Part shown: positions 497 to 11,379 of the stretch, piece by piece
Position numbering within the stretch: the stretch's first letter is position 1
Layout: each line of letters starts with the position of its first letter
Assembly: GCA_036380875.1 (NCBI GenBank)
Contig: DASVDX010000022.1
Location: forward strand, 15,753 to 79,752
Length of the DNA: 64,000 bases
Reading direction: 5' to 3'
Source: Acidimicrobiia bacterium
Lineage (GTDB): Bacteria > Actinomycetota > Acidimicrobiia > Spongiisociales > ZC4RG35
Notes under the pieces: generated by a model
The model's database searches: none
Told to the model about the DNA's origin: nothing
Seen by the model: the letters and a program-made list of their open reading frames with translations, nothing else
Program-made: the position numbers and the translations under genes

Positions 497-1372
497 TCAG
501 GCGGGCGGGTTCGGTTCGAACGCAAACACCCGACGAGGAGCCGGGACTCCCTTGAGCTCATGGAGACCGCGATCGGTGAACGCCAGTCCCGCGCCGGAGC
601 TCAGCTCGTAGGTCGTGCTCGACACGAGTATGTCGCCCGCAGACGCCAGAGCGAGGATCCGTGCGGCTTCATGGACGGCGAGGCCCCGAACGTTGCCTGG
701 CACCAATTCGACCTCGCCGGTGTGGACAGCGACGCGGATGTCCAGTCCGATGGCCTCGAGCTCCTCGCGCATCGCGACGGCGGCGAGGACGGCGCGCCCC
801 GCTCCGTTGAATGTGGCGAGGAAGCCGTCGCCGGTCGTGTCGATCTCAGTTCCTCCGAATTCCTCCAGAGCCTCCCGGATGAGCGAGTTGTGGCGCTCCA
901 TGAGCTGATCCCACGCGGCGTCACCCACCCGGGCGGCATGAGCAGTGGAACCGGCGATGTCCGTGAACAAGAGCGTTGTCAGGATGCGGTTGCCGGTAGG
1001 GCTCTTGCCGAACCCTCGCCAGCCTCCCCATATCACCAGGACCGAGGGTTCGTCACCGACGACCCAGACATCGTGCCCGGCAGGTATGTCGAAGACATCG
1101 CCGGCCGTCACGCTGAACTCCGTTCCATCGTCCATGCGGAAGCGGAGCTCACCGCTCAACCCGACGCCGACATGATGGAACTGACAGGAGTCGGTGCCGG
1201 CGATGGGCTTGATCTGCTCGGCCCAATGCCAGCCTGGATTGCACACGATCTTGCCGATCACCAGGTCGCCGAGACGGACCGTCATGCCGGAGCCGTACGG
1301 GAACGCTTGGACCTCTTCGGCGTCGTCGAAACTCTGCGCGTATCGGATCGGTGGCCGAAGGGGAGTTTTCAC
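497..1372 (-). CDS. Cupin-domain / class III adenylate-guanylate cyclase fusion protein
   Basis: N-terminal cupin motifs (FHHVGVGLSGE...G.H) followed by cyclase motifs LLFTDIAGST, TTGDGFLATF and VRVAVHTGEV. Start is put at the GTG (VKTPLRPP) because GC3 falls to about 50% upstream of it. The stop of the preceding small ORF overlaps this start. Confidence 0.8.
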   Translation of the reverse strand: MKTPLRPPIRYAQSFDDAEEVQAFPYGSGMTVRLGDLVIGKIVCNPGWHWAEQIKPIAGTDSCQFHHVGVGLSGELRFRMDDGTEFSVTAGDVFDIPAGHDVWVVGDEPSVLVIWGGWRGFGKSPTGNRILTTLLFTDIAGSTAHAARVGDAAWDQLMERHNSLIREALEEFGGTEIDTTGDGFLATFNGAGRAVLAAVAMREELEAIGLDIRVAVHTGEVELVPGNVRGLAVHEAARILALASAGDILVSSTTYELSSGAGLAFTDRGLHELKGVPAPRRVFAFEPNPPA

Positions 1373-1620
1373 CCGGCGAGGTCCTGGGCTGGAGTGGACG
1401 GGCCCGGCTTCAGATCGACCAGCGTCTCCCACGCATGATCACGATCCAAGAACTTGGCCATCATGACGTCTTCGCCGTCGTTGACGACCCCGTGGATCAC
1501 CCAGTGATCGGCGGCGATCCGGACGATGTCGGAAGCGATGACCGCATGTTCGTCGATCATCCGTTCCAGGAATGCCTGCTGGGGGGAGAGGTCTTGCTCG
1601 AAGTCCGGGAAACGGTCCAT
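1369..1620 (-). CDS. Hypothetical small protein (about 83 aa), coupled upstream of the cupin-cyclase
   Basis: ORF MDRFPDFEQDLSPQQAFLERMIDEHAVIASDIVRIAADHWVIHGVVNDGEDVMMAKFLDRDHAWETLVDLK has high GC3 on the minus strand and lower GC3 in the overlapping plus-frame ORF. No domain recognised. Confidence 0.4.
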   Translation of the reverse strand: MDRFPDFEQDLSPQQAFLERMIDEHAVIASDIVRIAADHWVIHGVVNDGEDVMMAKFLDRDHAWETLVDLKPGPSTPAQDLAG

Positions 1621-1781
1621 GCCGCCATAGTGGCGATCAGTGCAGAGGGCTGCCTCCGTAGGAATCCCTAGTCGTGACCTCCGGGCGGAGGGCCACGTAG
1701 CGAATTGCCTCGCGGGATACTGCGTTTCTGGACGGAACACGACTCACCATCGACCGGAGGCTCGTCGACGCCACGCTGGCG

Positions 1782-2888
1782 GTGGCGTCGACAGCGGCAG
1801 TCGCTGCCGCCATCGCCGTCGCCCCCTCGCAGGGCGAGCCGCGCACCCTCGCCACCTACACCCTGGCGCCGGTGGTGGGTGCCCTGTCGCTCCTGCGGAG
1901 GCGATGGCCGCTCGGGGCGCTGCTCGTCTCGGCGGCGAGTCTCCAGATCTACAACCTGTTGGACAATCCCGGCATCTTCGCCGCCGTCCCCCTTTCGGTG
2001 ACGCTCGCTGCCGCCTGGGCGTCCGGACATCGACTGGTGTCGCTCGCCCTGGCGGTGTGGTTCGGCGTGAGCCCGGTCGTGTTCGCCCTGGTGGCCGACC
2101 TCCCGGAAGCGATGCGGACTCTGATCCTCGAGGGGGCGATTCCCGACGCAGCGCTGTTGGCTTCGGTCCTGCTGCTCGGGGAGGCCATCCGGAGCCGTCG
2201 CCAGCTGGACCGAGCCCACAACCTCCTCCTCGCCGAGCAGGACAGATCGGAGGCGCTCCTCCTCAACGTGCTTCCGGCCAGCATCGCCGACCGTCTCAAG
2301 CAGGACGAGAAAGTGATCGCCGACCAGTTCGACGACGTAACGGTGATGTTCGCCGACCTGGTGGGCTTCACCCAGGCCAGCCAGCAGGTCCGTCCCGACG
2401 AGTTGGTGGGGACGCTCGACGAGTTGTTCTCCACGTTCGACCGTCTCGTCGAACGCCACGGACTGGAGAAGATCAAGACCATCGGCGACGCCTACATGGT
2501 CGCCGGCGGGTTGCCCGACCCTAGACCCGATCATGCCGCGGCTGTTGCCGACATGGCGCTCGCACTGCGTCGCGCCGTCTCGGAGCGGGTCGACCCCGCC
2601 GGGCACCCGATGGACGTCCGGATCGGGATCGACACCGGTCCCGTGGTGGCCGGGGTGATCGGAAGACACAAGTTCGCCTACGACCTCTGGGGGGACACCG
2701 TCAACACCGCCAGCCGCATGGAATCCCACGGGGTGCCGGGCCGGATCCAAGTCACCGAGCGCACGTACCGCCGGCTGCGTGATGCGTACCTCTTCGAGCC
2801 GCGTGGACCCGTGGAGATCAAAGGGAAGGGAATCATGGACACGTGGTTCCTGCTCGGGAGATCGGGCGAAGACGAGCACGACGAATAG
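1782..2888 (+). CDS. Membrane-anchored class III adenylate/guanylate cyclase
   Basis: N-terminal about 170 aa of hydrophobic helices, then VTVMFADLVGFT...KTIGDAYMVAGG...VRIGIDTGPVVAGVIG...GDTVNTASRMES. GTG start, TAG stop at 2886-2888. Confidence 0.85.
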   Translation: MASTAAVAAAIAVAPSQGEPRTLATYTLAPVVGALSLLRRRWPLGALLVSAASLQIYNLLDNPGIFAAVPLSVTLAAAWASGHRLVSLALAVWFGVSPVVFALVADLPEAMRTLILEGAIPDAALLASVLLLGEAIRSRRQLDRAHNLLLAEQDRSEALLLNVLPASIADRLKQDEKVIADQFDDVTVMFADLVGFTQASQQVRPDELVGTLDELFSTFDRLVERHGLEKIKTIGDAYMVAGGLPDPRPDHAAAVADMALALRRAVSERVDPAGHPMDVRIGIDTGPVVAGVIGRHKFAYDLWGDTVNTASRMESHGVPGRIQVTERTYRRLRDAYLFEPRGPVEIKGKGIMDTWFLLGRSGEDEHDE

Positions 2889-2899
2889 AGGAGCCTCCA

Positions 2900-4279
2900 A
2901 TGGCCATGGCCATCGACCCCGTGTGCGGGATGAGGATCGACACCGACGATGCCGTCGCCCGCACCGAATACGAAGGAACCACGTACTACTTCTGCAGCCG
3001 GGTGTGTTACGAGGCGTTCGTCGCCGACCAGGGGCTGTACGCGATCGGGTCCGGGAGCGATCGCCTGGACGAAGAGGAGTTGGCGAAGCGCGGCTTCACG
3101 ACCCCCGAGCACGTCGCCCGGCTGGTCGAACTGGGGATCGTGGATCCGAAGGACGGAACATTCGACCAAGAGGACGTCATGCGGGTGCGGGTCGTCGCTC
3201 AGCTGCAGGAAGCAGGCATCGAGCTCGGAGCGCTGGCCGAGGCGCTACGCAGCGGCCACCTCACGCTGGGCTACATGCAGTCTTCGGCGAGGAAGCACCC
3301 GCGTTCCAAGGCGACCTTCGCCGGGGTAGCCGAAGAGATCGGGGTCGGCTTCGACGTCCTCGAACGCCTCTATCTGGCGATGGGGCTGGCGCGACCCGCC
3401 CCCGACGAGCCGGCGCGAGAAGAAGACAGGCAGGCTCTCCGGGGACTAGGGGTCTTGTTCGAGGCCGGCGTCGAGGTCGACGATGTCATTCGGATGGCAC
3501 GGCTGTGGGGAGACAGCGTCCGAAAGATCGCCCAATACGTCCCGCACTACTTCCACAACACCGTCGAGCAGCAGTACCGCAACCAGGGATTGTCCGACAA
3601 CCGGGCCTACGAGGAGGCACTACGCCAGGTCGGGTTGCGCATCGGGCGTTCCGGCGAAGACTTCCTCGGGTGGCTGTTCCGACGGCATACCGACAACTTT
3701 GCCGTCGCTCACCAGTTCGAGCACGTGGAGGCGGGTCTCGAGTTGGCCGGCGTGAGGCGGCGGTCGGAGCGGGGGATCGAGGCGGCGGTGTTCGCCGACC
3801 TGTCCGGGTTCACCGAGCTCACCGAACGTTCCGGCGACCGAGCCGCCGCCGACGTCGCCTTGTCTCTCGCCGAACTGGCCACGGAGGAGGCTGGGCGTCA
3901 TGGCGGAGAAGTCGTCAAGCTCCTCGGCGACGGTGTCCTCCTCCACCTACCTGACCCGACCGACGCCGTGCACGTCGCCCTGGCGATCGTCGACGGGGCC
4001 GACTCGTTGGGTCTTCCCCCCGCCCATGTCGGCGTCGAGGCCGGGTCGATGCTCTACGAGGGCGGCGACTACTTCGGGCGCACGGTCAACCTGGCCGCCC
4101 GCATCGCCTCGGAGGCGGGGCCGGGGCAGGTGTTCGTAGGGGAGGGGGTCGCCGCCAATGCCGCTGCCGAGGATTTCTCCCTCATCACAGCCGGTCATTT
4201 CACCCTGAAGGGCGTCTCCGGGAAGGTGGAGATCTTCGAGGTGACACGTGGCGCAACTCCGCCCCAGGGGACTGGTTGA
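2900..4279 (+). CDS. YHS/TRASH metal-binding domain + central domain + class III nucleotidyl cyclase domain protein
   Basis: N-terminus MAMAIDPVCGMRIDTDDAVARTEYEGTTYYFCSRVCYEAF matches the YHS/TRASH CGM...YYFCS..C motif. C-terminus AAVFADLSGFTEL...KLLGDGVLLH...GRTVNLAARIAS is a cyclase domain. RBS GAGGAG lies 7-9 nt upstream of the ATG at 2900. Confidence 0.85.
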   Translation: MAMAIDPVCGMRIDTDDAVARTEYEGTTYYFCSRVCYEAFVADQGLYAIGSGSDRLDEEELAKRGFTTPEHVARLVELGIVDPKDGTFDQEDVMRVRVVAQLQEAGIELGALAEALRSGHLTLGYMQSSARKHPRSKATFAGVAEEIGVGFDVLERLYLAMGLARPAPDEPAREEDRQALRGLGVLFEAGVEVDDVIRMARLWGDSVRKIAQYVPHYFHNTVEQQYRNQGLSDNRAYEEALRQVGLRIGRSGEDFLGWLFRRHTDNFAVAHQFEHVEAGLELAGVRRRSERGIEAAVFADLSGFTELTERSGDRAAADVALSLAELATEEAGRHGGEVVKLLGDGVLLHLPDPTDAVHVALAIVDGADSLGLPPAHVGVEAGSMLYEGGDYFGRTVNLAARIASEAGPGQVFVGEGVAANAAAEDFSLITAGHFTLKGVSGKVEIFEVTRGATPPQGTG

Positions 4280-4314
4280 CGGGGCGAGGGAGCCGGCTCT
4301 AAGGTGCGGCGGGT

Positions 4315-4330
4315 AATCGATTATCGAAGA
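4315..4330. promoter_or_regulatory. AT-rich palindrome AATCGATtATCGAAGA (core TCGATtATCGA) 40-55 bp upstream of the dikinase/GntR/Mo-hydroxylase operon start
   Basis: Perfect 5+1+5 inverted repeat in an otherwise 70% GC region. The identical core recurs at 13978-14000. Confidence 0.55.
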
Positions 4331-4370
4331 TAGGACCCGCGACCGGAGGCGAGCTGGAGAGGAGGACTCC

Positions 4371-6158
4371 GTGGCCGACAGCAGCCCTGTGATCAAGCAG
4401 TTCCTGGGAGACGAGAGCTTCCCGATCGAGTGGGAGTCCGAAGAGGAGAAGAAGCTCTTCTGGTTCTTCGACGACCTCCACTGTCCACAGCCTCTCTCGC
4501 CCATGTACTTCGACATCGGCGGATGGTGGCTGACCTGCGATCACATGTTCCGGCGATTCGGCACCCCGTTCGCCGTCGACTGGGTCGCCAAGAACGTCAA
4601 CGGCTATCTGTACACGGCTGCCATCCCGGCGGACCCCGACGTCCGCGTCGATGCCATGGAGTACGGGTACCGCTACGTGCCGCGGGTGCCGAAGGACGAC
4701 CCCAACTACGCCGCCGAGATGGGCGCCTACCTGAACGCCGTGCTCCCGGTGTACGGCCAGCACTTCGCCGACTGGTGGGAGAACCGCCTCGTCCCGGAGA
4801 TGAAGCGGAACTTCGCCTACCTCGAGGAGAAGATCGACAACTGGCAGGACATCTCTCTGATGGAGTGGGCGACGATCCTCGAGGACGCCATCGACATCCA
4901 CGATCGCCACTGGAAGATCCACTGGATGCTCAACTTCGCCCAGTTGTCCGCCACCTTGAACCTCGAGGCGACGATGCGCGAGGTGAAGGGTGAGGTAGAC
5001 CCGGAGATCCTCGGCCGCCTGCAGAACTCCGCCAAGGACCGCAACTGGGACTCGATCGAGGCCCTGTGGAAGATGAAGGAGGAGATCGTCGCCGACGAGG
5101 AGCTGTCGACGATCTTCGCCCGTGAGACCGGTGTCGACGTGATGGCGGCGCTCGAGGCCTCAGAGCGCGGCCGCCGCTTCATCGAGGAGCGACTCCGCCC
5201 CTACCAGCGCGAGTTCGGCTGGCATTCGGTGTGGAGCCACGAGTTCATCTTCCCCACTCGCTTCGAGCGTCCCGAGCCGATCCTCGAGGTGATCAAGGGC
5301 TACATCGAAACCGACTACGACTACCCGGCGCGGGTGGAGGAGCTGAGAAAGGACATCGAGGAGGCGTCCCGGCAGCTGCTCGAAGGCCTCGAGGGCGAAG
5401 CCCTCGAGAAGTTGCGGGCGGCGAACGAGATCAACCTGAAGATGGCGCCGCTCACGCCCGACCACCACTTCTACATCGACCAGGGCACCAACGCCCATCT
5501 CCGGGTCGTGCTGGTCTGCATCGGCCGAAAGCTCGTCGAAGCCGGTCATCTCGACGACCCCGAGGACGTGATCTTCCTGCGCTACAACGAGTTGCGCCGG
5601 TTCATGGCCGACCCGGAGAACTTCGACGCCCGCAGCATCGTGTCACAGCGCAAAGACGAGAGGGAGGCGGCCTACGACATCCGGCCCCGGGACTGGATCG
5701 GCACGGCCACGGAGCAGGCCCTCTCGTTCCCGTACCTCGGCCTGTGGGGCTTCCCCGAACGCCTGTACATGGAGCAGCCGGAAGCCGAGGACCAGGTCAA
5801 CGGCCTCGCGGCTTCTCCCGGCGTCGTCACCGGCACGGCCAAGGTCGTGTTGAGCGTGGACGAGTTCGACCAGGTCGAGAAGGGCGACATCCTCGTCTGC
5901 CAGATGACGAACCCGGCGTGGGTGGTGCTCTTCACCAAGATCTCCGGCCTCGTCACCGACGCGGGAGGCACCGCCTCGCATCCTGCCGTTCTCGCCCGCG
6001 AGTTCGGGATCCCCGCGGTCATCGGAACGTCCGTCGCCACGTCGCGGATCGAGTCGGGAGACAAGTTGCGCGTGAACGGATCGACCGGTGTGGTGGAGAT
6101 CCTCGGCGCCGACCACCAGGAGCGCGAGGCCCCCGCCAGCGACCTGTTCACTACATGA
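4371..6158 (+). CDS. PEP-synthase-like dikinase large subunit: about 480-aa N-terminal domain plus C-terminal PEP-utilizing swivel phospho-His domain (PpsA-like / RPH RD+HD-like)
   Basis: C-terminal motif GLVTDAGGTASHPAVLAREFGIPAVIGT is the PEP-utilizers mobile domain with the catalytic His. GTG start with RBS GGAGAGGAGG. Stop overlaps the GntR start (ATGA). Confidence 0.85.
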   Translation: MADSSPVIKQFLGDESFPIEWESEEEKKLFWFFDDLHCPQPLSPMYFDIGGWWLTCDHMFRRFGTPFAVDWVAKNVNGYLYTAAIPADPDVRVDAMEYGYRYVPRVPKDDPNYAAEMGAYLNAVLPVYGQHFADWWENRLVPEMKRNFAYLEEKIDNWQDISLMEWATILEDAIDIHDRHWKIHWMLNFAQLSATLNLEATMREVKGEVDPEILGRLQNSAKDRNWDSIEALWKMKEEIVADEELSTIFARETGVDVMAALEASERGRRFIEERLRPYQREFGWHSVWSHEFIFPTRFERPEPILEVIKGYIETDYDYPARVEELRKDIEEASRQLLEGLEGEALEKLRAANEINLKMAPLTPDHHFYIDQGTNAHLRVVLVCIGRKLVEAGHLDDPEDVIFLRYNELRRFMADPENFDARSIVSQRKDEREAAYDIRPRDWIGTATEQALSFPYLGLWGFPERLYMEQPEAEDQVNGLAASPGVVTGTAKVVLSVDEFDQVEKGDILVCQMTNPAWVVLFTKISGLVTDAGGTASHPAVLAREFGIPAVIGTSVATSRIESGDKLRVNGSTGVVEILGADHQEREAPASDLFTT

Positions 6159-6865
6159 CCGCAGAACGAGACGAAATCGAGCGAGACGACTTCGGACGCG
6201 AGGACCTCAACCGCGAGGTCCTCAGCGTTCAGGTGAAGGACCGGATCCTGCAGTGGATCATGGAGGGCGAGTTGCCGCCAGGCTCCCGCATCGTCGAGAC
6301 GCGGGTGGCCCGCCGCCTCGGGGTCAGCCAGGCCCCGGTCCGGGAGGCGCTGAGGGACCTCGCCAGCGTCGGCATCGTCCAGGTGGAGCCCTATAGGGGA
6401 GCGTTCGTTCGCGAGCCGAGCCGTGAGGAGCTCGTCGAGGCGATGACCCTGCGGGGGGAGCTCGAAGCGCTCGGCGCCCGATGGGCGGTGGAGCGCATCA
6501 CCGACGAGGACCTGGCCGAACTGCGGTGGCTGATCGGCGCCATGGAGGAAGCCGCCGAAGCCCACGACACCCACGCTCACGCCCTCCACAACACGAGATT
6601 CCACCAGCGGATCATGGAAGCCTCCGGCAATCGCTCGTTGTTGTGGGTGTGGTCGCTCCTCGAGCCCATGGCCCGCACCTACTACACGGCCGCCGTGTCG
6701 GGGGCAGACCTCGGCTGGCTCGGCCGCCGGCACGTAGCGATTCTCGAGGCGCTCGAGTCCCGTGACGCCGAGAAGGTGGCCGACGTGATGCGGGCCCACG
6801 CCATGGAGGCCGAAGAGATCGTTCTGTCCCACTACCCCGACACTGAAGGAGGAGACCCGCGGTGA
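6155..6865 (+). CDS. GntR-family (FadR/FCD subfamily) transcriptional regulator
   Basis: N-terminal wHTH (VETRVARRLGVSQAPVREALRDL) followed by an all-helical FCD-like C-terminal domain. 4-bp overlaps with both neighbouring genes (ATGA upstream, GTGA downstream). Confidence 0.85.
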   Translation: MTAERDEIERDDFGREDLNREVLSVQVKDRILQWIMEGELPPGSRIVETRVARRLGVSQAPVREALRDLASVGIVQVEPYRGAFVREPSREELVEAMTLRGELEALGARWAVERITDEDLAELRWLIGAMEEAAEAHDTHAHALHNTRFHQRIMEASGNRSLLWVWSLLEPMARTYYTAAVSGADLGWLGRRHVAILEALESRDAEKVADVMRAHAMEAEEIVLSHYPDTEGGDPR

Positions 6866-7806
6866 CCACCCAGGCAGACGCCATCCTGTGGTTCGACCAC
6901 GCCGACTGCCGGCGTGTCGAAGTCGCCGGCGGCAAGGGTGCCAGCCTGGCATCGATGACCGCCTTGGGGCTCCCGGTTCCGCCTGGATTCCTGGTGCCGG
7001 CTTCGGCACTCGACCGGGCGCTGCACCAATCCGGCCACGCCTCCGAGATGCTCTCGGTCCTCTCCTCGATCAAGGGGGAGAACGACGTCGAGCCCGCCTC
7101 GGAGCAGCTGCAGAGGCTCGTGCTGGACTCCCCGATCACCGGAACGCTGGCCGAAGCCATCGCCGATGCCTACGAGAGCCTCGATCAGGGCGGCGGGGTG
7201 GCGGTCCGCTCGAGCGCCTGTGCCGAAGACGGGGAGGTGGCCAGTTACGCCGGCCAGCAGGACACCTACCTCAACGTGAGAGGCGCCGACCAGGTGCTCC
7301 ACTACGTCAACCGTTGCTGGGCCTCGTTCTTCGGGACCCGTGCCCTCTTCTACCGCCGTCTCAAGGGGTCGCTCCAGGACCTGGGGATGGCCGTCGTCGT
7401 TCAACGCCAACTCGACGCCGACAAGGCGGGCGTCATGTTCACGATCGACCCGGTTCGGCGCCGCCGCGACCAGCTTCTCATCGAGGCGGCGTGGGGCCTG
7501 GGCGAGGCTGTCGTCTCCGGGGCGGTGATCCCTGACCAATACATCGTGGCCCGGGACGGCCGGCTCAAGAAGGCGCAGGTGTCGCGCCAGGACAAGATGG
7601 TCGTGCGCCGGGCCGACGGAGGGACGGAAGAGGTCGAGCTCTCCGAGGATCAGGCGACCAGCCAGGTCCTGGACGAAGCCGAACTGTCCCAGCTCGTCGA
7701 GCTGGGGCTGCGGGCCGAAGAGATCTTCGGCGGTCCCCAGGACGTGGAGTGGGCGTTCGAGAACGGAAGCCTCTACCTCCTCCAGTCCCGCCCTGTGACC
7801 GCCTGA
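6862..7806 (+). CDS. Pyruvate-phosphate-dikinase N-terminal (PPDK_N, ATP-grasp, PEP/pyruvate-binding) domain protein; dikinase ATP-binding subunit (PpsB-like / RPH AD-like)
   Basis: VEVAGGKGASLASM...GFLVPASAL...VAVRSSACAEDGEVASYAGQQDTYLNV...GVMFTIDP...QDVEWAF matches the PEP-synthase N-terminal ATP-binding domain. GTG start overlaps the GntR stop. Confidence 0.85.
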   Translation: MTTQADAILWFDHADCRRVEVAGGKGASLASMTALGLPVPPGFLVPASALDRALHQSGHASEMLSVLSSIKGENDVEPASEQLQRLVLDSPITGTLAEAIADAYESLDQGGGVAVRSSACAEDGEVASYAGQQDTYLNVRGADQVLHYVNRCWASFFGTRALFYRRLKGSLQDLGMAVVVQRQLDADKAGVMFTIDPVRRRRDQLLIEAAWGLGEAVVSGAVIPDQYIVARDGRLKKAQVSRQDKMVVRRADGGTEEVELSEDQATSQVLDEAELSQLVELGLRAEEIFGGPQDVEWAFENGSLYLLQSRPVTA

Positions 7807-7808
7807 TC

Positions 7809-8648
7809 GTGTTCGGTTACGCCCGACCCGAGTCACTTCCCGAAGCCCTCGAGCTCGTCGGCGCCGGGGCCCGCCCGCTCGCCGGCGGCACCGATCTCTT
7901 GGTCGGTCTGAGAAAAGGCAAGTTCACCGCGGACCGGGTGGTCGACCTGAAGGCGATCACGGAGCTCCAGCCAGCGATCTACGAGACCCATGGCGGTTGG
8001 GAGATCACCGCCGGCACGGTGATGAGTGACATCGTCGACCACCCGGGCGTCCGGGCGAGATATCCGGCGCTGGTCCAGGCGGCATCTGCGGTCGGCTCTA
8101 TCCAGATCCGCAACCGGGCGACGCTGGCCGGCAACGTGTGCAACGCCTCTCCCGCCGCCGACACGGCTCCGCCGCTCCTCGTCTACGACGCCTCCGTCGT
8201 GGTCGCGGGGGCCGACGGCGAGCGCACGATCTCGCTCGTCGACTTCTTCGTGGGTCCCGGCCAGACAGCCCTCCTCCCCGGCGAGCTGGTGACCCGTCTG
8301 GTGCTGCCGCCTCCCACACGGTCCGCCGCGTTCGCCCGCCTCACCCGGCGGCGAGGCGTCGACCTGGCGACGGTGAGCGTGTGCTGCGGGGTGGGTGACG
8401 ACGGCAGTGTCCGCTTCGCCCTCGGCGCCGCCGGACCGCGGCCGCTCGTGGTGGAGGACACAAGCGGGACGTTGGCGGACCCCGCCGCTCCGGAAGGGGA
8501 TGTCAGCGGCCGCATCGGCGAGCTCCTCGCAGTCGCCACTCCGATCTCCGATGTTCGCGCCGGCGCCGACTACCGCCGGGCGATGCTCGAAGTCCTCGCC
8601 CACCGGACTCTCGAGGCAGCGTTGGCCCAGAGGGAGGAGCGGCGATGA
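7809..8648 (+). CDS. Xanthine dehydrogenase family FAD-binding (medium, CoxM/XdhB-like) subunit
   Basis: FGYARPESLPEALELVG...AGGTDLLV and FAD-binding molybdopterin dehydrogenase motifs. GTG start 2 nt after the PPDK_N stop. Confidence 0.85.
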   Translation: MFGYARPESLPEALELVGAGARPLAGGTDLLVGLRKGKFTADRVVDLKAITELQPAIYETHGGWEITAGTVMSDIVDHPGVRARYPALVQAASAVGSIQIRNRATLAGNVCNASPAADTAPPLLVYDASVVVAGADGERTISLVDFFVGPGQTALLPGELVTRLVLPPPTRSAAFARLTRRRGVDLATVSVCCGVGDDGSVRFALGAAGPRPLVVEDTSGTLADPAAPEGDVSGRIGELLAVATPISDVRAGADYRRAMLEVLAHRTLEAALAQREERR

Positions 8649-9121
8649 CCCCGCAGACGATGAACATCACCCTGGTCGTCAACGGCCAGCACCATTCCCT
8701 CGACGTCGCCGTCCATCACTCGCTGCTCGACGTGCTCCGCAACGACCTGGACCTGACCGGGACGAAGGAGTGCTGTGCCGAAGGCGAGTGCGGCGCCTGC
8801 ACGGTGCGGATGGACGAAAAGGCCGTCAACGCCTGCCTGGTCCTCGCCGTGGAGGCCGACGGAAGAGACATAACCACCATCGAAGGTCTGGCGACTGAAG
8901 ACCATCTGAGCCCGGTGCAGCAGGCCTTCCTCGAGGAGGGGGCGGTCCAATGCGGCTTCTGCATCCCGGGAATGGTCATGTCGGCCGCCTATCTCCTCGA
9001 ACACAACGACGCGCCCACCGAGGAGGAGATCCGCGAAGCCCTCTCCGGCAACCTGTGCCGGTGCGCCGGCTACAAGCGGATCGTGCGGGCGGTGCAGCGG
9101 GCGGCGGAGGCGGGTAGATGA
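8645..9121 (+). CDS. (2Fe-2S)-binding small subunit of xanthine dehydrogenase family enzyme
   Basis: Cys motifs CAEGECGACTV and CGFC...CRCAGY. ATGA overlap upstream. Confidence 0.9.
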   Translation: MTPQTMNITLVVNGQHHSLDVAVHHSLLDVLRNDLDLTGTKECCAEGECGACTVRMDEKAVNACLVLAVEADGRDITTIEGLATEDHLSPVQQAFLEEGAVQCGFCIPGMVMSAAYLLEHNDAPTEEEIREALSGNLCRCAGYKRIVRAVQRAAEAGR

Positions 9122-11379
9122 CGACAGGAAACGTCGGCCGGCCCGCAGGACGCATCGGCGGACTCGACCGGGTCACCGGCCGCCAGCGTTACGTTGCCGA
9201 CCTCCGCCTCGACGACGCCCTCCACGTGAAGCTCGTGACGCTGCCCTGTGCCCGGGCCTGGATCGTGGACATCGACACGTCGAAGGCATGGGAGGTGCCG
9301 GGCGTGCGGACGATCTTCACCGCCGCCGACCTGCCGGACCCCATGCCCCGCTACGGAGTCCACTACGACGACCGTCCCGTCCTGGCGGTGGGCGAGACCA
9401 AGTTCCACGGCGAGCCCGTGGCGGCGGTGGCCGCCGACACCCTCGACGCCGCCCAGCGAGCCGCCGCCCTCGTGCAGGTCCAGTACGAGGAACTGCCCCC
9501 GGTCCTCGATGTGCGGGCTGCCCTCGACCCGGCGGCGCCGCTCGTCGTCGATCCCGTCCTGCGACCCGACGACCCTCTGGCGTCCACCAACATCCGCCGA
9601 GAGTTCCGTTACGCCTGGGGCGACGTCGACACGGCCACCGCGGACCTGGTGATCGAGAACACCTACACGTTCCCGATGGTCACCCATTTCGCCATCGAGC
9701 CGCACGGGTTCGTAGTCGCCGCCGACGAATCAGGCGTGACCGTGTGGAGTTCCATCCAGCACCCCTACATCCTCCAGCGGGTCATGGCCCGGGTCCTCGG
9801 GTTGCCGCTGTCGAGAGTGAGGGTCATCGCCCCCGACCCCGGCGGGGCATTCGGCGGGAAGGGCTACCCGAAATTCGAGCCTCTCCTGGCCTACATGGCC
9901 ATGGCCACCGGCCGCCCCTGCCGCCTCGTGCTCACGCTCGATGAGACGTTCCAGGCGGTGCGCCGCAACAACGCCGAGGTTCGTATACGCACCGGTTTCG
10001 ACTCCGACGGCACGATCCGCTTCCAGGACATCGAAGCCGACTTCCTGATGGGAGCCTACGTCGACATCTCTGCCCGGGTGATCTCGAAGAGCAGCCACCT
10101 CGCTGCCGGTCCCTATCGCGTCCCCAACGCCCGCATCCTCGCCCGGGCACTGCATTCCCACACCCCGCCGAGCACGGCCATGCGCGGCTTCGGCACTCCT
10201 CAGTTCAGCTGGGCCCTCGAGCAGCAGATGGACGAGGCCGCCCGTCGCCTCGACATGGATCGACTGGAGATCCGCCTCCGCAACCTCGCCCGCAAGGGCG
10301 AAGAGTTCATCCCGGGAGACACCCCCGCCGACGGCGACTGGTTCGAGTCGGTCCGGAGAGCTGCCGACGCCATCGGCTGGGGTGAGCCTCTACCCGACGG
10401 CCGGGGGAGAGGGCTGGCCGTCGGCATCAAGTCCTCCGCGACGGCCGGGGCGGCCTACTCCATCCTGCGTTTCCTCTACGACGGGAGCGTGTTCGTGCTC
10501 GTCGGCACGTCCGACATGGGTCAGGGAGCGCGCACCATCCTCACTCAGATCGTCTCCGACGAACTGGGTGTGCCGCCCGAAGCCGTCAACGTCGTCATGG
10601 GCGACACCGCCGCGGCACCCTTCGATTACTCGACATCGGCGAGCCGCTCCACCGTTTTCATGGGCGGGTCGGTGATGCGCGGATGCGCCGAGTTGAAAGA
10701 CCAAGTTCGAGAGATGGCCGCCCGCCTGCGCGGCTGCGAGCCAGAGGAGATCGAGATCGACCGGGGCGTGGTCACGTTCCCCGGCGGCGAGCAGAAGGGG
10801 ATCGTCGAGGTGGTCCAAGAAGGACTAGGCGCCGTCGGCGGCGAACTGATCGCCGTCGGGCTGATGCGGGGGGAGGCGGACCCGAATCACCCGATCGGGG
10901 GAAGGCCGTGGTTCTACGAGTTCAACTGCACGGCGGTCGAACTGGAAGTCGACCGCCGGACGGGCGAGGTTCTCATCCACAAGCATGTCACCGTGGCCGA
11001 CGTCGGAAAGGCCATCAACCCCCAGCACGTGGAGAGCCAGGACGAAGGGGCGGCGATCATGGGATTGGGGCACACGCTCATGGAGCACCTGGTGCTCGAC
11101 GAGCACGGGAGGATCGTGAACCTGGGAGCGCTCGACTATCGGATCCCCACCACCAAGGACATGCCGCTCGACCTCGAGTCGATCATCGTCGAAAACGGCG
11201 ACGGGCCCGGACCTCACGGCGCCAAGGGAGTGGGTGAGGGAGGGCTCTTGTGCGTCGCCGCCGCGGTCGCTTCGGCGGTGACCGACGCGACTGGCGTTGT
11301 GATCCGCGACTTGCCGCTCACCCCCGAGCGGATCTGGCGGGCGATCAACGAGGTCACACGGTCCGAGGTTTCTCCCTGA
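9118..11379 (+). CDS. Molybdopterin-binding large subunit of xanthine dehydrogenase / aldehyde oxidoreductase family enzyme
   Basis: 753 aa with an a/b hammerhead N-terminus, PDPGGAFGGK and AMRGFGTPQ active-site region. ATGA overlap with the FeS subunit. Confidence 0.9.
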   Translation: MTTGNVGRPAGRIGGLDRVTGRQRYVADLRLDDALHVKLVTLPCARAWIVDIDTSKAWEVPGVRTIFTAADLPDPMPRYGVHYDDRPVLAVGETKFHGEPVAAVAADTLDAAQRAAALVQVQYEELPPVLDVRAALDPAAPLVVDPVLRPDDPLASTNIRREFRYAWGDVDTATADLVIENTYTFPMVTHFAIEPHGFVVAADESGVTVWSSIQHPYILQRVMARVLGLPLSRVRVIAPDPGGAFGGKGYPKFEPLLAYMAMATGRPCRLVLTLDETFQAVRRNNAEVRIRTGFDSDGTIRFQDIEADFLMGAYVDISARVISKSSHLAAGPYRVPNARILARALHSHTPPSTAMRGFGTPQFSWALEQQMDEAARRLDMDRLEIRLRNLARKGEEFIPGDTPADGDWFESVRRAADAIGWGEPLPDGRGRGLAVGIKSSATAGAAYSILRFLYDGSVFVLVGTSDMGQGARTILTQIVSDELGVPPEAVNVVMGDTAAAPFDYSTSASRSTVFMGGSVMRGCAELKDQVREMAARLRGCEPEEIEIDRGVVTFPGGEQKGIVEVVQEGLGAVGGELIAVGLMRGEADPNHPIGGRPWFYEFNCTAVELEVDRRTGEVLIHKHVTVADVGKAINPQHVESQDEGAAIMGLGHTLMEHLVLDEHGRIVNLGALDYRIPTTKDMPLDLESIIVENGDGPGPHGAKGVGEGGLLCVAAAVASAVTDATGVVIRDLPLTPERIWRAINEVTRSEVSP

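Follow-up and report, generated by a model that had tools for sequence, protein, structure and literature searches.

The gene studied here lies in a 64,000-nucleotide stretch of an Acidimicrobiia bacterium assembly (GenBank GCA_036380875.1, contig DASVDX010000022.1; the whole stretch is called the window below) and joins a YHS/TRASH module to a class III nucleotidyl cyclase. It raises the question of whether a metal could be read out as a cyclic nucleotide and, if so, through which parts of the protein. Almost all that is understood, to our knowledge, of how bacteria sense copper concerns transcription factors (CueR, CsoR, CopY) and two-component systems, and the YHS cyclase of M. phlei is the only biochemical hint of copper being read out as cAMP. 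A sequence-only reading of the gene had described a metal-binding YHS/TRASH domain, a helical linker of about 230 amino acids and a cyclase producing a cyclic nucleotide, and knew of no characterised example.

The gene and its immediate surroundings

The ATG at position 2900 is almost certainly the true start of the gene, because a GGAG Shine-Dalgarno sequence precedes it and homologues begin with MAMxxDPVCGM. The GTG at position 2843, from which the ORF listing reads the frame (2843..4279, plus strand), was rejected on these same two grounds, the ribosome binding site and the N-termini of the homologues. Coordinates of the features are given in Table 1.

The gap between the upstream cyclase gene and the ATG is 11 nt, and the two genes are probably co-transcribed and translationally coupled, judging from the sequence. 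The same pairing with an upstream membrane cyclase gene was found in locus L003 (82% identity) and in L001. The arrangement of the window was nevertheless rejected as a conserved operon, since the upstream membrane cyclase is common only to L003 and to L001/L039; the downstream PEP-utilising genes are, among the related loci, common only to L003. The genes within 13 kb downstream of the YHS cyclase are PEP-utilising, GntR, Mo-hydroxylase and similar genes. A scan of positions 1300-4500 gave no sigma-70 promoter and no intrinsic terminator, such a scan being uninformative at 67% GC in an actinobacterial-type genome. A protein identical to that of the window (P0001) is present in public metagenomes, where its relatives number in the thousands, and the fusion is therefore not an assembly artefact.

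Table 1. Positions of genes, domains and signals in the window (numbering of the window; residues are those of the 459-aa protein).
Feature	Position	Strand	Basis and remarks
Third cyclase, cupin + class III cyclase, 311 aa	497..1432	-	Divergent; PF00211 40.4 bits
Upstream class III cyclase with hydrophobic N-terminal region, 368 aa	1782..2888	+	PF00211 215 bits
GGAG Shine-Dalgarno sequence	2890..2893	+	Sequence; 6 nt 5' of the ATG, 1 nt 3' of the upstream TAG (2886-2888)
YHS cyclase fusion gene, 459 aa	2900..4279	+	ORF listing; stop codon 4277-4279
YHS/TRASH domain, residues 5-48	2912..3043	+	Pfam PF04945; putative ligands D6, C9, C32, C36
Short fusion linker, residues 49-57 (...IGSGSDRL...)	3044..3070	+	pLDDT <50 at residues 50-52
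MerR-like winged-helix / Rv1828_C-like segment, residues ~58-130	3071..3289	+	First part of the regulatory domain
Rv1264-type regulatory domain, residues ~135-285	3302..3754	+	PF16701; second HTH-like unit, long helices 193-227 and 254-282 running into the catalytic domain
Class III cyclase homology domain, residues ~290-450	3767..4249	+	PF00211; alignment with Rv1264 and Ma1120; Foldseek

The YHS domain

The fusion of a YHS/TRASH domain to a class III cyclase was borne out, as both domains scored above their Pfam cut-offs and every motif quoted in the sequence-only reading is present. The N-terminal CGM...YYFCS..C motif scored as YHS (PF04945, E 9.7e-13, 48.3 bits against a cut-off of 30.3) over profile positions 2-44 of 47. 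The cysteines are spaced C-x22-C-x3-C with Asp6 before them, in agreement with the TRASH pattern C-x(19-22)-C-x3-C, and D6, C9, C32 and C36 are invariant in an alignment of 36 fused homologues. The predicted model folds this segment into four short strands and a helix (pLDDT ~85-92), and a Foldseek search with the fold gave weak matches (E 0.3-0.7) to L24e and MMOH, which are carriers of TRASH/YHS domains; similarity of the segment to zf-FCS and L24e is also weak.

We infer from the sequence that this domain binds a transition metal. Copper responsiveness of the protein is plausible, because the Asp/Cys3 set is conserved, because of the M. phlei precedent and because multicopper oxidase/heavy-metal-binding (HMBD) genes occur near the YHS cyclase gene in 25 of the 81 related loci.

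The catalytic domain

The cyclase homology domain matched PF00211 over residues 297-446 (30.7 bits against a cut-off of 21.9), as the earlier reading had expected, and the predicted fold matched the catalytic domains of Ma1120 and Rv1900c with a target TM of ~0.85. Alignment with Rv1264 and Ma1120 assigned D300 and D344 to metal binding, K340 and D390 to adenine recognition, and N397 and R401 to the transition state; K437 is also present. The Asp pair and the transition-state residues, on which the earlier proposal of an active cyclase depended, are thus all in place. The catalytic residues are kept in 30 close relatives and in 123 more distant family representatives. Among 124 family sequences, D300, D344, N397 and R401 are retained in 118-124, K340, which precedes D344 by four residues, in 122, and D390, located in GDYFG, in 121. 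The equivalent of D344 in Rv1264, D265, is essential for activity (PMC8856561).

A Lys/Asp pair at the substrate-specifying positions denotes ATP, as opposed to a Glu/Cys-type pair for GTP. K340 and D390 therefore indicate cAMP as the product; the cyclase assignment of the earlier reading stands, while its unspecified cyclic nucleotide is narrowed to cAMP. The window protein is apparently a catalytically competent adenylyl cyclase, to go by these residues, and a pseudo-cyclase is ruled out by the complete and conserved canonical set.

The regulatory domain

The region between the YHS and the catalytic domain, which had been read as a helical linker of about 230 amino acids, is identified by its sequence similarities as an Rv1264-type autoinhibitory regulatory domain. 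The best sequence match of the protein was the Rv1264 holoenzyme (1y10; phmmer E 1e-22, query residues 142-454 against chain residues 71-380). The PF16701 (Ad_Cy_reg) profile passed marginally, with 29.6 bits against a cut-off of 28.6 over profile positions 60-140, and it is also recorded for most homologues. In the Foldseek search 1y10 and 1y11 held ranks 1-5 (E ~1e-15, 372-390 columns), with a TM of 0.3-0.4 that is low because the orientation of the domains differs.

The first part of this region carries the precomputed family annotation PF28507 (Rv1828_C). Its match to MerR_1 was weak (17.1 bits against a cut-off of 21.6, profile positions 23-67 only), as were the FtsR matches to residues ~55-125, and the sequence match to 5ydc had an E of 0.37. 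A more distant relative, P0254, passes the MerR_1 cut-off with 43.7 bits. A Foldseek search with residues 1-135 gave MerR-family winged helix-turn-helix domains, CbpM, 5ydc and Rv1264N; its matches were all weak (E 0.06-0.7), those to the MerR family having E 0.06-0.5. The predicted model of these residues (pTM 0.76) hints at a defined packing of the YHS against the regulatory segment.

Four histidines of the regulatory domain, H216, H219, H271 and H275, are invariant and specific to the clade. The Rv1264-type regulatory domain senses pH in Rv1264 and fatty acids in Rv2212. By analogy, the window enzyme probably has two or more inputs, of which the YHS is one, since the regulatory domain is itself a known sensor module.

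Split and fused forms of the module

Comparison of 81 related loci showed that the YHS is a separate gene of ~50 aa in 57 of them and is fused to the cyclase in 22. The window protein represents the fused state of a YHS/cyclase module that consists of two genes, and the position of its linker is occupied in split relatives by a stop codon, a spacer and a start codon. The split YHS ORFs lie -46 to +74 nt from the likely start of the cyclase, most of them at -11 to +49 nt; the frame varies among them, each of the three stop codons is used, and start and stop overlap by 4 nt in several cases. In the gene calls of the public collection itself, the 403-aa core P0086 is preceded at a distance of 12 nt by a 49-aa PF04945 gene (locus L086, 2304-2453). 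Throughout the 81 loci the YHS gene directly adjoins the cyclase core. More distant members of the core family, at 31-35% identity, carry an independently fused YHS at the C-terminus. This pattern of split and fused genes supports a functional coupling of the YHS and the cyclase core.

Two other accounts of the split loci were rejected. The YHS-less paralogues of ~403 aa do not call for repeated loss of the domain, since most of them are the core half of a split pair. Stop readthrough or selenocysteine insertion at the TGA that stands in frame in some of the split loci is unlikely, as TAG and TAA are also used, the frame differs or there is a 4-nt overlap in other loci, and every core is provided with its own start codon. 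A practical consequence for annotation is that cyclases of ~400 aa that seem to lack a YHS may have their sensor in an overlooked upstream gene of 50 codons. The clade of YHS-associated Rv1264-type cyclases is large and uncharacterised and belongs to uncultured soil Actinomycetota and Chloroflexota.

Copper-related and cNMP-binding genes near the module

A multicopper oxidase gene with an HMBD insert is located in the flank of 25 of the 81 loci, often in the same apparent operon, and this family was the commonest neighbour at the first and at the second position. In nine loci the oxidase gene immediately precedes the YHS on the same strand, with 9-124 nt between it and the start of the YHS, and in two of these loci, L059 and L073, the YHS ORF begins 9-10 nt past it; the oxidase gene can also be separated from the YHS by another gene or lie on the opposite strand. 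Genes for Pyr_redox_3 flavoprotein oxidoreductases are placed between the oxidase and the YHS in 11 loci, an HMA-type P1B ATPase gene is near the YHS cyclase in L052, and a cNMP-binding membrane protein is encoded nearby in 18 of the 81 loci. The flank is free of the oxidase in 56 of 81 loci; the window is one of them, and 18 of the 22 loci with a fused YHS are among them.

For the window itself, tblastn searches of the 64 kb and of the closest relative, L003, gave no match for the multicopper oxidase or the cNMP-binding membrane protein, and Pfam searches of the 14 flanking ORFs of the window gave no copper or cAMP-receptor genes. The linkage to the oxidase is clustered in a small number of related sub-lineages among uncultured Actinomycetes, and part of it may therefore be inherited synteny.

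Comparison with characterised proteins

The closest characterised system is the M. phlei YHS adenylyl cyclase MpAC (EID14989.1, Linder 2015), a protein of 233 aa in which a linker of 8 residues joins a bare catalytic domain to a C-terminal YHS through which Cu2+ activates the enzyme (PMC4626032). It supplies the characterised example that the sequence-only reading had been unable to name. Activation was specific for copper, zinc being without effect, and was abolished when EDTA was added as a quench after pre-incubation with Cu2+, which pointed to binding rather than oxidation (PMC4626032). The same paper, the sole relevant one returned by our literature search on YHS/TRASH with cyclase, Rv1264 or copper, lists about 20 YHS cyclases, all with a C-terminal YHS, and describes no split YHS/cyclase gene pairs (PMC4626032).

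MpAC and the window protein both combine a class III cyclase, class IIIc-like in its cyclase domain, with a YHS carrying an Asp and three Cys, and we propose YHS-dependent metal regulation as the principle of the window protein, as in MpAC. The window protein, however, has its YHS at the N-terminus and a regulatory domain of ~240 residues of the Rv1264 type before the catalytic domain, instead of the MpAC layout of a YHS placed directly at the C-terminus after a short linker with no other domain. The coupling therefore cannot match that of MpAC in detail. Copper-switched YHS cyclases are already known, while the layout of an N-terminal YHS on an Rv1264-type enzyme is uncharacterised; the split and fused YHS gene module, the oxidase neighbours, the cNMP-binding neighbours and the distant members with a C-terminal YHS are new here.

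Rv1264 (1y10, inhibited; 1y11, active; regulatory domain 2ev1-2ev4) and its paralogue Rv2212 share PF16701 and the same catalytic residues with the window protein, which presumably, by this analogy, uses the same mechanism of autoinhibition and release. Unlike the window protein, Rv1264 has neither a YHS nor the Rv1828_C-like first segment and the invariant His216, His219, His271 and His275 of the window clade, and its identity to the window protein is only ~25%. We know of no report that either Rv1264 or Rv2212 responds to metals.

TRASH/YHS domains also occur in copper-transporting P-type ATPases, in archaeal HTH-TRASH copper regulators and in L24e (Ettema et al. 2003, as cited in PMC4626032). 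These domains share with the window YHS the small Cys-rich module C-x(19-22)-C-x3-C, whereas the output of the window protein is a second-messenger cyclase and not transport or transcription. A TRASH domain beside a helix-turn-helix module recalls the archaeal regulators. Metal occupancy varies within the group, as the TRASH domain of L24e binds Zn/Cd structurally and the YHS of toluene-4-monooxygenase has no bound metal (PMC4626032). Residues ~55-125 of the window protein resemble, in sequence and in predicted fold, the C-terminal domain of Rv1828/FtsR (5ydc/5ydd, PF28507) and the winged helices of the MerR family. Rv1828 acts on ftsZ as a dimeric transcription factor of the MerR type (PMC6683498), whereas the segment of the window protein lies within the regulatory domain of a cyclase and falls below the MerR_1 cut-off.

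Proposed mode of regulation and its alternatives

The reading that we favour, and to which we give somewhat better than even credence, is that the window gene encodes a soluble, competent adenylyl cyclase built on the Rv1264 plan, whose N-terminal YHS, most probably loaded with copper, raises cAMP by way of the regulatory domain. The dimeric and mostly helical regulatory domain would hold two catalytic domains inactive until a signal arrives. A thiophilic metal, most probably copper, would bind the Asp/Cys3 site of the YHS, and the loaded YHS would act on the MerR-like segment that lies next to it in the regulatory domain, shifting the enzyme to its active state and increasing cAMP; a further input, such as pH or a lipid as in Rv1264 and Rv2212, may come in through the regulatory domain. 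Within this reading we infer the binding of the metal, its identity, the activating direction and the relief of autoinhibition.

The enzyme could instead be controlled by pH and/or fatty acids in the manner of Rv1264 and Rv2212, with the YHS as a constitutive, zinc-ribbon-like structural Zn element that stabilises or dimerises the N-terminus. The well-conserved Rv1264-like regulatory domain is consistent with this, as are the invariant histidines of its helices, which would suit pH sensing, the weak similarity of the YHS to zf-FCS and L24e, the absence of copper genes near the window gene, and the structural Zn/Cd of the L24e TRASH and the metal-free YHS of toluene-4-monooxygenase (PMC4626032). 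We regard it as rather unlikely: one would not expect an element of structural function alone to persist as a separate, translationally coupled gene of 50 aa in 57 of 81 loci or to be recruited independently to the opposite terminus, the oxidase and HMBD neighbours in 25 of 81 loci would be left without explanation, and the only YHS cyclase tested was specific for copper, with Zn inert (PMC4626032). Those neighbours would be accommodated if the YHS were mainly a copper chaperone-like partner of the multicopper oxidase and the cyclase read the loading of the chaperone and not free metal. The start of the YHS ORF 9-10 nt after the oxidase gene in L059 and L073 and within 124 nt in nine loci, the HMBD metal-binding insert of the oxidase, and the small, free-standing YHS protein of most loci agree with such a role. 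We nevertheless find it improbable, as 56 of 81 loci, among them the window and 18 of 22 fused forms, have no oxidase in the flank, as the YHS always adjoins the cyclase core while the oxidase may be one gene away or on the other strand, and as every fusion of the YHS in these 81 loci is with the cyclase and none is with the oxidase.

Control by oxidation of the three cysteines, the YHS acting as a thiol redox sensor without metal coordination, would draw on the invariance of these cysteines and on the Pyr_redox_3 genes between oxidase and YHS in 11 loci. The loss of MpAC activation after the EDTA quench following Cu2+ (PMC4626032) argues against it. The conserved Asp and the C-x22-C-x3-C spacing are moreover the signature of a metal site, and we hold redox sensing to be highly improbable. 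It would be a very distant prospect that the MerR-like winged helix still binds DNA and that the protein is a bifunctional metal-responsive regulator and cyclase, even though the fold matches include DNA-binding MerR-family domains and P0254 scored 43.7 bits with MerR_1. MerR regulators are classic metal sensors, a point in favour of DNA binding. The window protein, in contrast, reached only 17.1 bits against 21.6 with a partial profile, its closest sequence matches are the non-DNA-binding C-terminal domain of Rv1828 and the regulatory domain of Rv1264, and the corresponding region of Rv1264 belongs to the regulatory dimer (PDB 1y10/1y11). The winged helix is probably not DNA-binding.

The favoured reading of a metal-loaded YHS acting through the regulatory domain can be taken further, tentatively and with more doubt than confidence. 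The YHS might be a detachable copper-sensing subunit for a whole clade of Rv1264-type adenylyl cyclases, supplied as a 50-aa protein or fused, that docks in a metal-dependent manner on the MerR-like lobe, where it may complete a site with His216, His219, His271 and His275. Docking would release autoinhibition, and cytoplasmic copper would lead through cAMP to the neighbouring cNMP-binding membrane proteins and on to copper oxidation or efflux. If this is true, a widespread copper-to-cAMP pathway operates in soil Actinomycetota and Chloroflexota, in trans and in cis; if copper has no effect, the finding shrinks to another multi-domain class III cyclase. The natural split and fused pairs, set on the structurally understood switch of Rv1264, offer a tractable system for YHS/TRASH metal signalling and a candidate pathway joining copper, cAMP and multicopper oxidase.

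The product of the divergent cyclase gene upstream of the pair showed a weak Cupin_2 match (22.1 bits against a cut-off of 27.2) and a LipJ-like C-terminal match of 168.6 bits.

The YHS-cyclase gene and its product

The results of our Pfam scans showed that the 459-aa product of the gene at 2900-4279 carries a YHS domain and a class III cyclase domain, both scoring over their cut-offs (see the table), and the fusion is real, since public data contain an identical protein, along with thousands of relatives. This upholds the sequence-only reading of the gene, all of whose quoted motifs were found in the product. The ATG at 2900 was taken as the working start within the ORF at 2843-4279; the TAG of the preceding gene (2886-2888) is followed by GGAG at 2890-2893 and, after six nucleotides, by this ATG, and the homologues, from many sources, begin with MAM(V/I)xDPVCGM.

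Features of the YHS-cyclase gene, its product and the surrounding genes
Feature	Position in window	Strand	Residues	Remarks
Cupin-like class III cyclase gene	497-1432	-
Class III cyclase gene with hydrophobic/membrane N-terminal part	1782-2888	+
ORF containing the YHS-cyclase gene	2843-4279	+		ORF listing of window
YHS-cyclase gene	2900-4279	+		459-aa product; working start ATG at 2900
YHS (PF04945)			5-48	Pfam E 9.7e-13, 48.3 bits, cut-off 30.3
Short linker			49-57	Low model confidence
MerR-like/Rv1828_C-like lobe			about 58-130
Ad_Cy_reg (PF16701)			139-217	Pfam 29.6 bits, cut-off 28.6
Two long Ad_Cy_reg helices			193-227 and 254-282
His216-Glu277 stretch	3545-3730		216-277
Cyclase domain			about 290-450
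Guanylate_cyc (PF00211)			297-446	Pfam 30.7 bits, cut-off 21.9
Downstream cluster, PEP-utilising and hydroxylase genes	4371-11379	+
PEP-utilising enzyme, part 1	4371-6158	+		595 aa, C-terminal mobile domain only
GntR/FCD regulator	about 6152-6865	+		Interrupts the split PEP-utilising enzyme
PEP-utilising enzyme, part 2	6862-7806	+		PPDK_N ATP-binding protein
Three-subunit molybdenum hydroxylase, xanthine-dehydrogenase/CO-dehydrogenase type	7749-11379	+		FAD, 2Fe-2S and molybdopterin subunits

The segment between the two domains, previously described as a helical linker, is in fact a known Rv1264-type regulatory domain. The Mycobacterium tuberculosis Rv1264 holoenzyme was the best solved-structure relative by sequence (E 1e-22), and residues 142-454 of the window protein are collinear with residues 71-380 of the Rv1264 chain, so that the match covers both the regulatory and the catalytic domains. 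With an AlphaFold2 model of the window protein (mean pLDDT 82.8), Foldseek placed the Rv1264 holoenzyme, in its inhibited (1y10) and active (1y11) forms, at ranks 1-5 over 372-390 columns, followed by Ma1120 and Rv1900c, each as an isolated catalytic domain.

The YHS domain adjoins a MerR-like lobe. Residues 78-117 gave a MerR_1 match below the Pfam cut-off, and in NCBIfam residues 52-123 matched FtsR, an actinobacterial regulator, over its C-terminal half; this segment carries PF28507 (Rv1828_C) in the precomputed annotation of homologues. In a separate model of residues 1-135 (pLDDT 86.5), residues about 55-130 consistently matched the MerR-family winged-helix domains of MtaN, SoxR, MerR and CbpM, and also the Rv1828 C-terminal domain (5ydc) and Rv1264N (2ev1), while the YHS part matched L24e and methane monooxygenase hydroxylase, all with weak E-values (0.06-0.7). 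The pTM of this model, 0.76, hints that the YHS domain and the lobe may be held in a defined packing.

Catalytic residues and the YHS site

HMMER alignments to Rv1264 and Ma1120 identified the catalytic residues of the window protein as D300 in FADLSGFT, K340 and D344 in VKLLGDG, D390, N397 and R401 in GDYFGRTVNLAAR, and K437 in LKG. Among 30 close homologues these positions vary little or not at all, and in the wider family (n=124) D300 was conserved in 124 proteins, K340 in 122, D344 in 123, D390 in 121, N397 in 118 and R401 in 123. A lysine/aspartate pair is the adenine-specifying combination in class III cyclases (Linder and Schultz 2003, as cited in PMC4626032). The cyclase is therefore predicted from its residues to be intact and ATP-specific, which narrows the cNMP output proposed earlier to cAMP through K340/D390. 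A pseudo-cyclase, which had been named as one outcome that would overturn the proposal, does not fit, the metal-binding aspartate pair and the transition-state residues being all present and conserved. D344 aligns with D265 of Rv1264, whose substitution by alanine abolishes activity (PMC8856561).

In the YHS domain, D6, C9, C32 and C36 (spacing D-x2-C-x22-C-x3-C) were invariant in 36 fused homologues. The same aspartate and three cysteines were proposed, by analogy with TRASH, as the copper ligands of MpAC, the YHS adenylyl cyclase of Mycobacterium phlei, a 233-aa enzyme in which the catalytic domain is followed, after 8 residues, by a C-terminal YHS (PMC4626032). MpAC was inactive with Mg-ATP and was turned on by 1-10 uM Cu2+, which required the YHS domain and was reversed by EDTA, whereas Zn, Fe, Cr, Co and Ni had no effect; the roughly 20 YHS cyclases known in 2015 all had a C-terminal YHS (PMC4626032). 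This study, the sole directly relevant paper in the literature searched (Linder 2015), is a characterised example of a metal-responsive YHS cyclase, of which the earlier reading was not aware, and YHS copper sensing with a cAMP output was thus already published as a concept. The window protein differs in carrying its YHS at the N-terminus of an Rv1264-type holoenzyme, an arrangement not previously published.

Distribution and the split and fused forms

Word-indexed searching retrieved 2894 proteins at E <= 1e-5, with the YHS motif in 104 of the best 120. When 1.84 billion cluster representatives were scanned in full with HMMER, 266 matched at E <= 1e-30, nearly all of them ~400-aa proteins aligned over residues about 54-450 only; clustering at 50% shrinks the whole YHS-associated clade to about one representative. 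The 80 genome loci retrieved, all from uncultured MAGs, belong to Acidimicrobiia, other Actinomycetota, Propionibacteriaceae, Nocardioidaceae and Chloroflexota/Limnocylindria, with a few in bins labelled Acidobacteriota or Gemmatimonadota.

Inspection of the DNA showed that seemingly YHS-less homologues usually have the YHS as a separate ORF upstream: among 81 distinct loci, 57 were split, 22 fused, one was without YHS and one lay at a contig edge. The separate ORF encodes 48-52 aa (MAMVTDPVCGM...YYFCSQxCHDAF...), and its stop codon may be TGA, TAG or TAA. The core gene, encoding the regulatory and cyclase domains, starts from -46 to +74 nt relative to it, mostly from -11 to +49 nt (these starts are start-codon estimates), in any of the three frames, with 4-nt start/stop overlaps at several loci. 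Public gene calls agree, a 49-aa PF04945 gene being placed 12 nt upstream of the 403-aa homologue P0086. A common variant has one in-frame stop, a 12-nt spacer and an ATG; it was seen in about 17 split loci, with mostly TGA as the stop, and 23 have any same-frame spacing. Same-frame loci include L004-L010, L012, L014, L026, L029 and L034, with the junction at about 8140-8170 in each. Readthrough of the stop codon at these junctions seems unlikely; judging from the sequence, loss of one stop codon would suffice for fusion, and one altered codon would carry either form into the other.

In a neighbour-joining tree built from the core region the fused forms are intermingled with the split ones, so conversion between them happened repeatedly. 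Five wider-family representatives of 31-35% identity (P0220, P0254, P0264, P0266 and P0269) have the order MerR_1, Ad_Cy_reg, Guanylate_cyc, YHS, and their C-terminal YHS represents an independent recruitment. Their N-terminal MerR_1 matches are over the cut-off (P0254 at 43.7 bits), which shows that a genuine winged helix of the MerR type forms the start of the regulatory domain. Core-family members of 36-40% identity had no upstream YHS gene among those examined. Evidence of a classic kind thus speaks for an action of the YHS module on the cyclase: the two are tightly coupled, they have fused and separated repeatedly, and YHS has been recruited independently to one terminus or the other.

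Neighbouring genes in related loci

In Pfam scans of 129 first and 133 second neighbours of YHS-cyclase loci, multicopper oxidase domains and the heavy-metal-binding domain HMBD ranked first or close to it both times (11 in the first list, 8-9 in the second), followed by cNMP_binding (6 in each). The oxidase is a ~550-aa, three-domain protein with an HMBD insert, CPMDP...CPICGM, located at residues 361-387 between cupredoxin domains (for example L037, 3739-5388, +). By tblastn, it lay within the retrieved flank at 25 of the 81 loci, which are not 25 independent events because they are confined to a few related sub-lineages. At 9 loci it shared the strand of the YHS and lay immediately upstream, 9-124 nt before the YHS start; at 11 it was separated from the YHS by one Pyr_redox_3 flavoprotein gene, at 4 fused loci it was upstream on the opposite strand and 0.5-3.7 kb away, and at one (L068) it was downstream on the opposite strand. 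At L059 and L073 the oxidase gene ends 9-10 nt ahead of the YHS mini-gene. An HMA-type P1B ATPase was found two genes from the YHS cyclase at one locus, L052.

Eighteen of the 81 loci have, close to the YHS cyclase, a gene for a ~950-aa protein that joins a TLC/MFS-like membrane part to HEAT repeats and, at its C-terminus, a cNMP-binding domain; at several of these loci the gene lies downstream on the same strand, at a distance of 11-36 nt. The protein is a candidate for a transporter or receptor gated by cAMP. Its genes (L034, 9374-12223, +; also L043, L045, L068, L009 and L023) immediately adjoin cyclase genes of the Rv1264 type, whether these carry YHS or not, and at L083 the gene (581-3385) overlaps a YHS-free core-family cyclase gene.

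Proposed mechanism

By analogy with Rv1264, the regulatory domain would hold the catalytic dimer in a separated state until released by a signal, a model that rests on the inhibited and active structures (1y10 and 1y11) and on the pH sensitivity of the inhibitory domain of Rv1264 (PMC8856561). From MpAC and the gene neighbourhood, the signal, or one of several, would be copper bound at the Asp/Cys3 site of the YHS. His216, His219, His271 and His275, on the two long regulatory helices, are invariant across the YHS-associated clade, fused and split; the wider ~400-aa family does not conserve them and Rv1264 lacks them, whereas Glu277 and Arg262 are conserved family-wide. Speculatively, these histidines could serve in pH sensing or form part of a composite (metal) site.

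The earlier interpretation finds partial support: our data establish the architecture, the catalytic residues, the conserved ligands, the genetic coupling and the gene context, while copper as the signal itself is what we infer. No unknown principle and no uncharacterised fold is involved; joining a YHS sensor to an Rv1264-type switch gives a new architecture within a kind of sensor cyclase that is already known, and the split/fused organisation and the copper-oxidase context in relatives were previously unreported. The boldest reading, that the YHS is a trans-acting copper sensor serving a widespread cAMP pathway, is less likely than not.

Surroundings of the gene in the window

Neither a multicopper oxidase nor the cNMP-binding membrane protein was found by tblastn in the 64-kb window or in the closest locus, L003, from an Acidimicrobiia MAG (76% identity). 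The window itself is probably from a related actinobacterium. Three cyclase genes with different N-terminal parts (cupin-like, hydrophobic/membrane, and YHS with Rv1264-type) are adjacent in the window, and a 123-aa ORF between the first two (1369-1740, -), with a coding-like GC3 of 0.74, gave no match in a Pfam search. The membrane-cyclase and YHS-cyclase genes are 11 nt apart, and this pair also occurs in L003 and in L001 (Chloroflexia); at many loci the YHS cyclase has further cyclase genes in its vicinity. The flanking genes of the window are present in L003, with 82% identity for the cyclase upstream and 93% and 82% for the PEP-utilising genes downstream.
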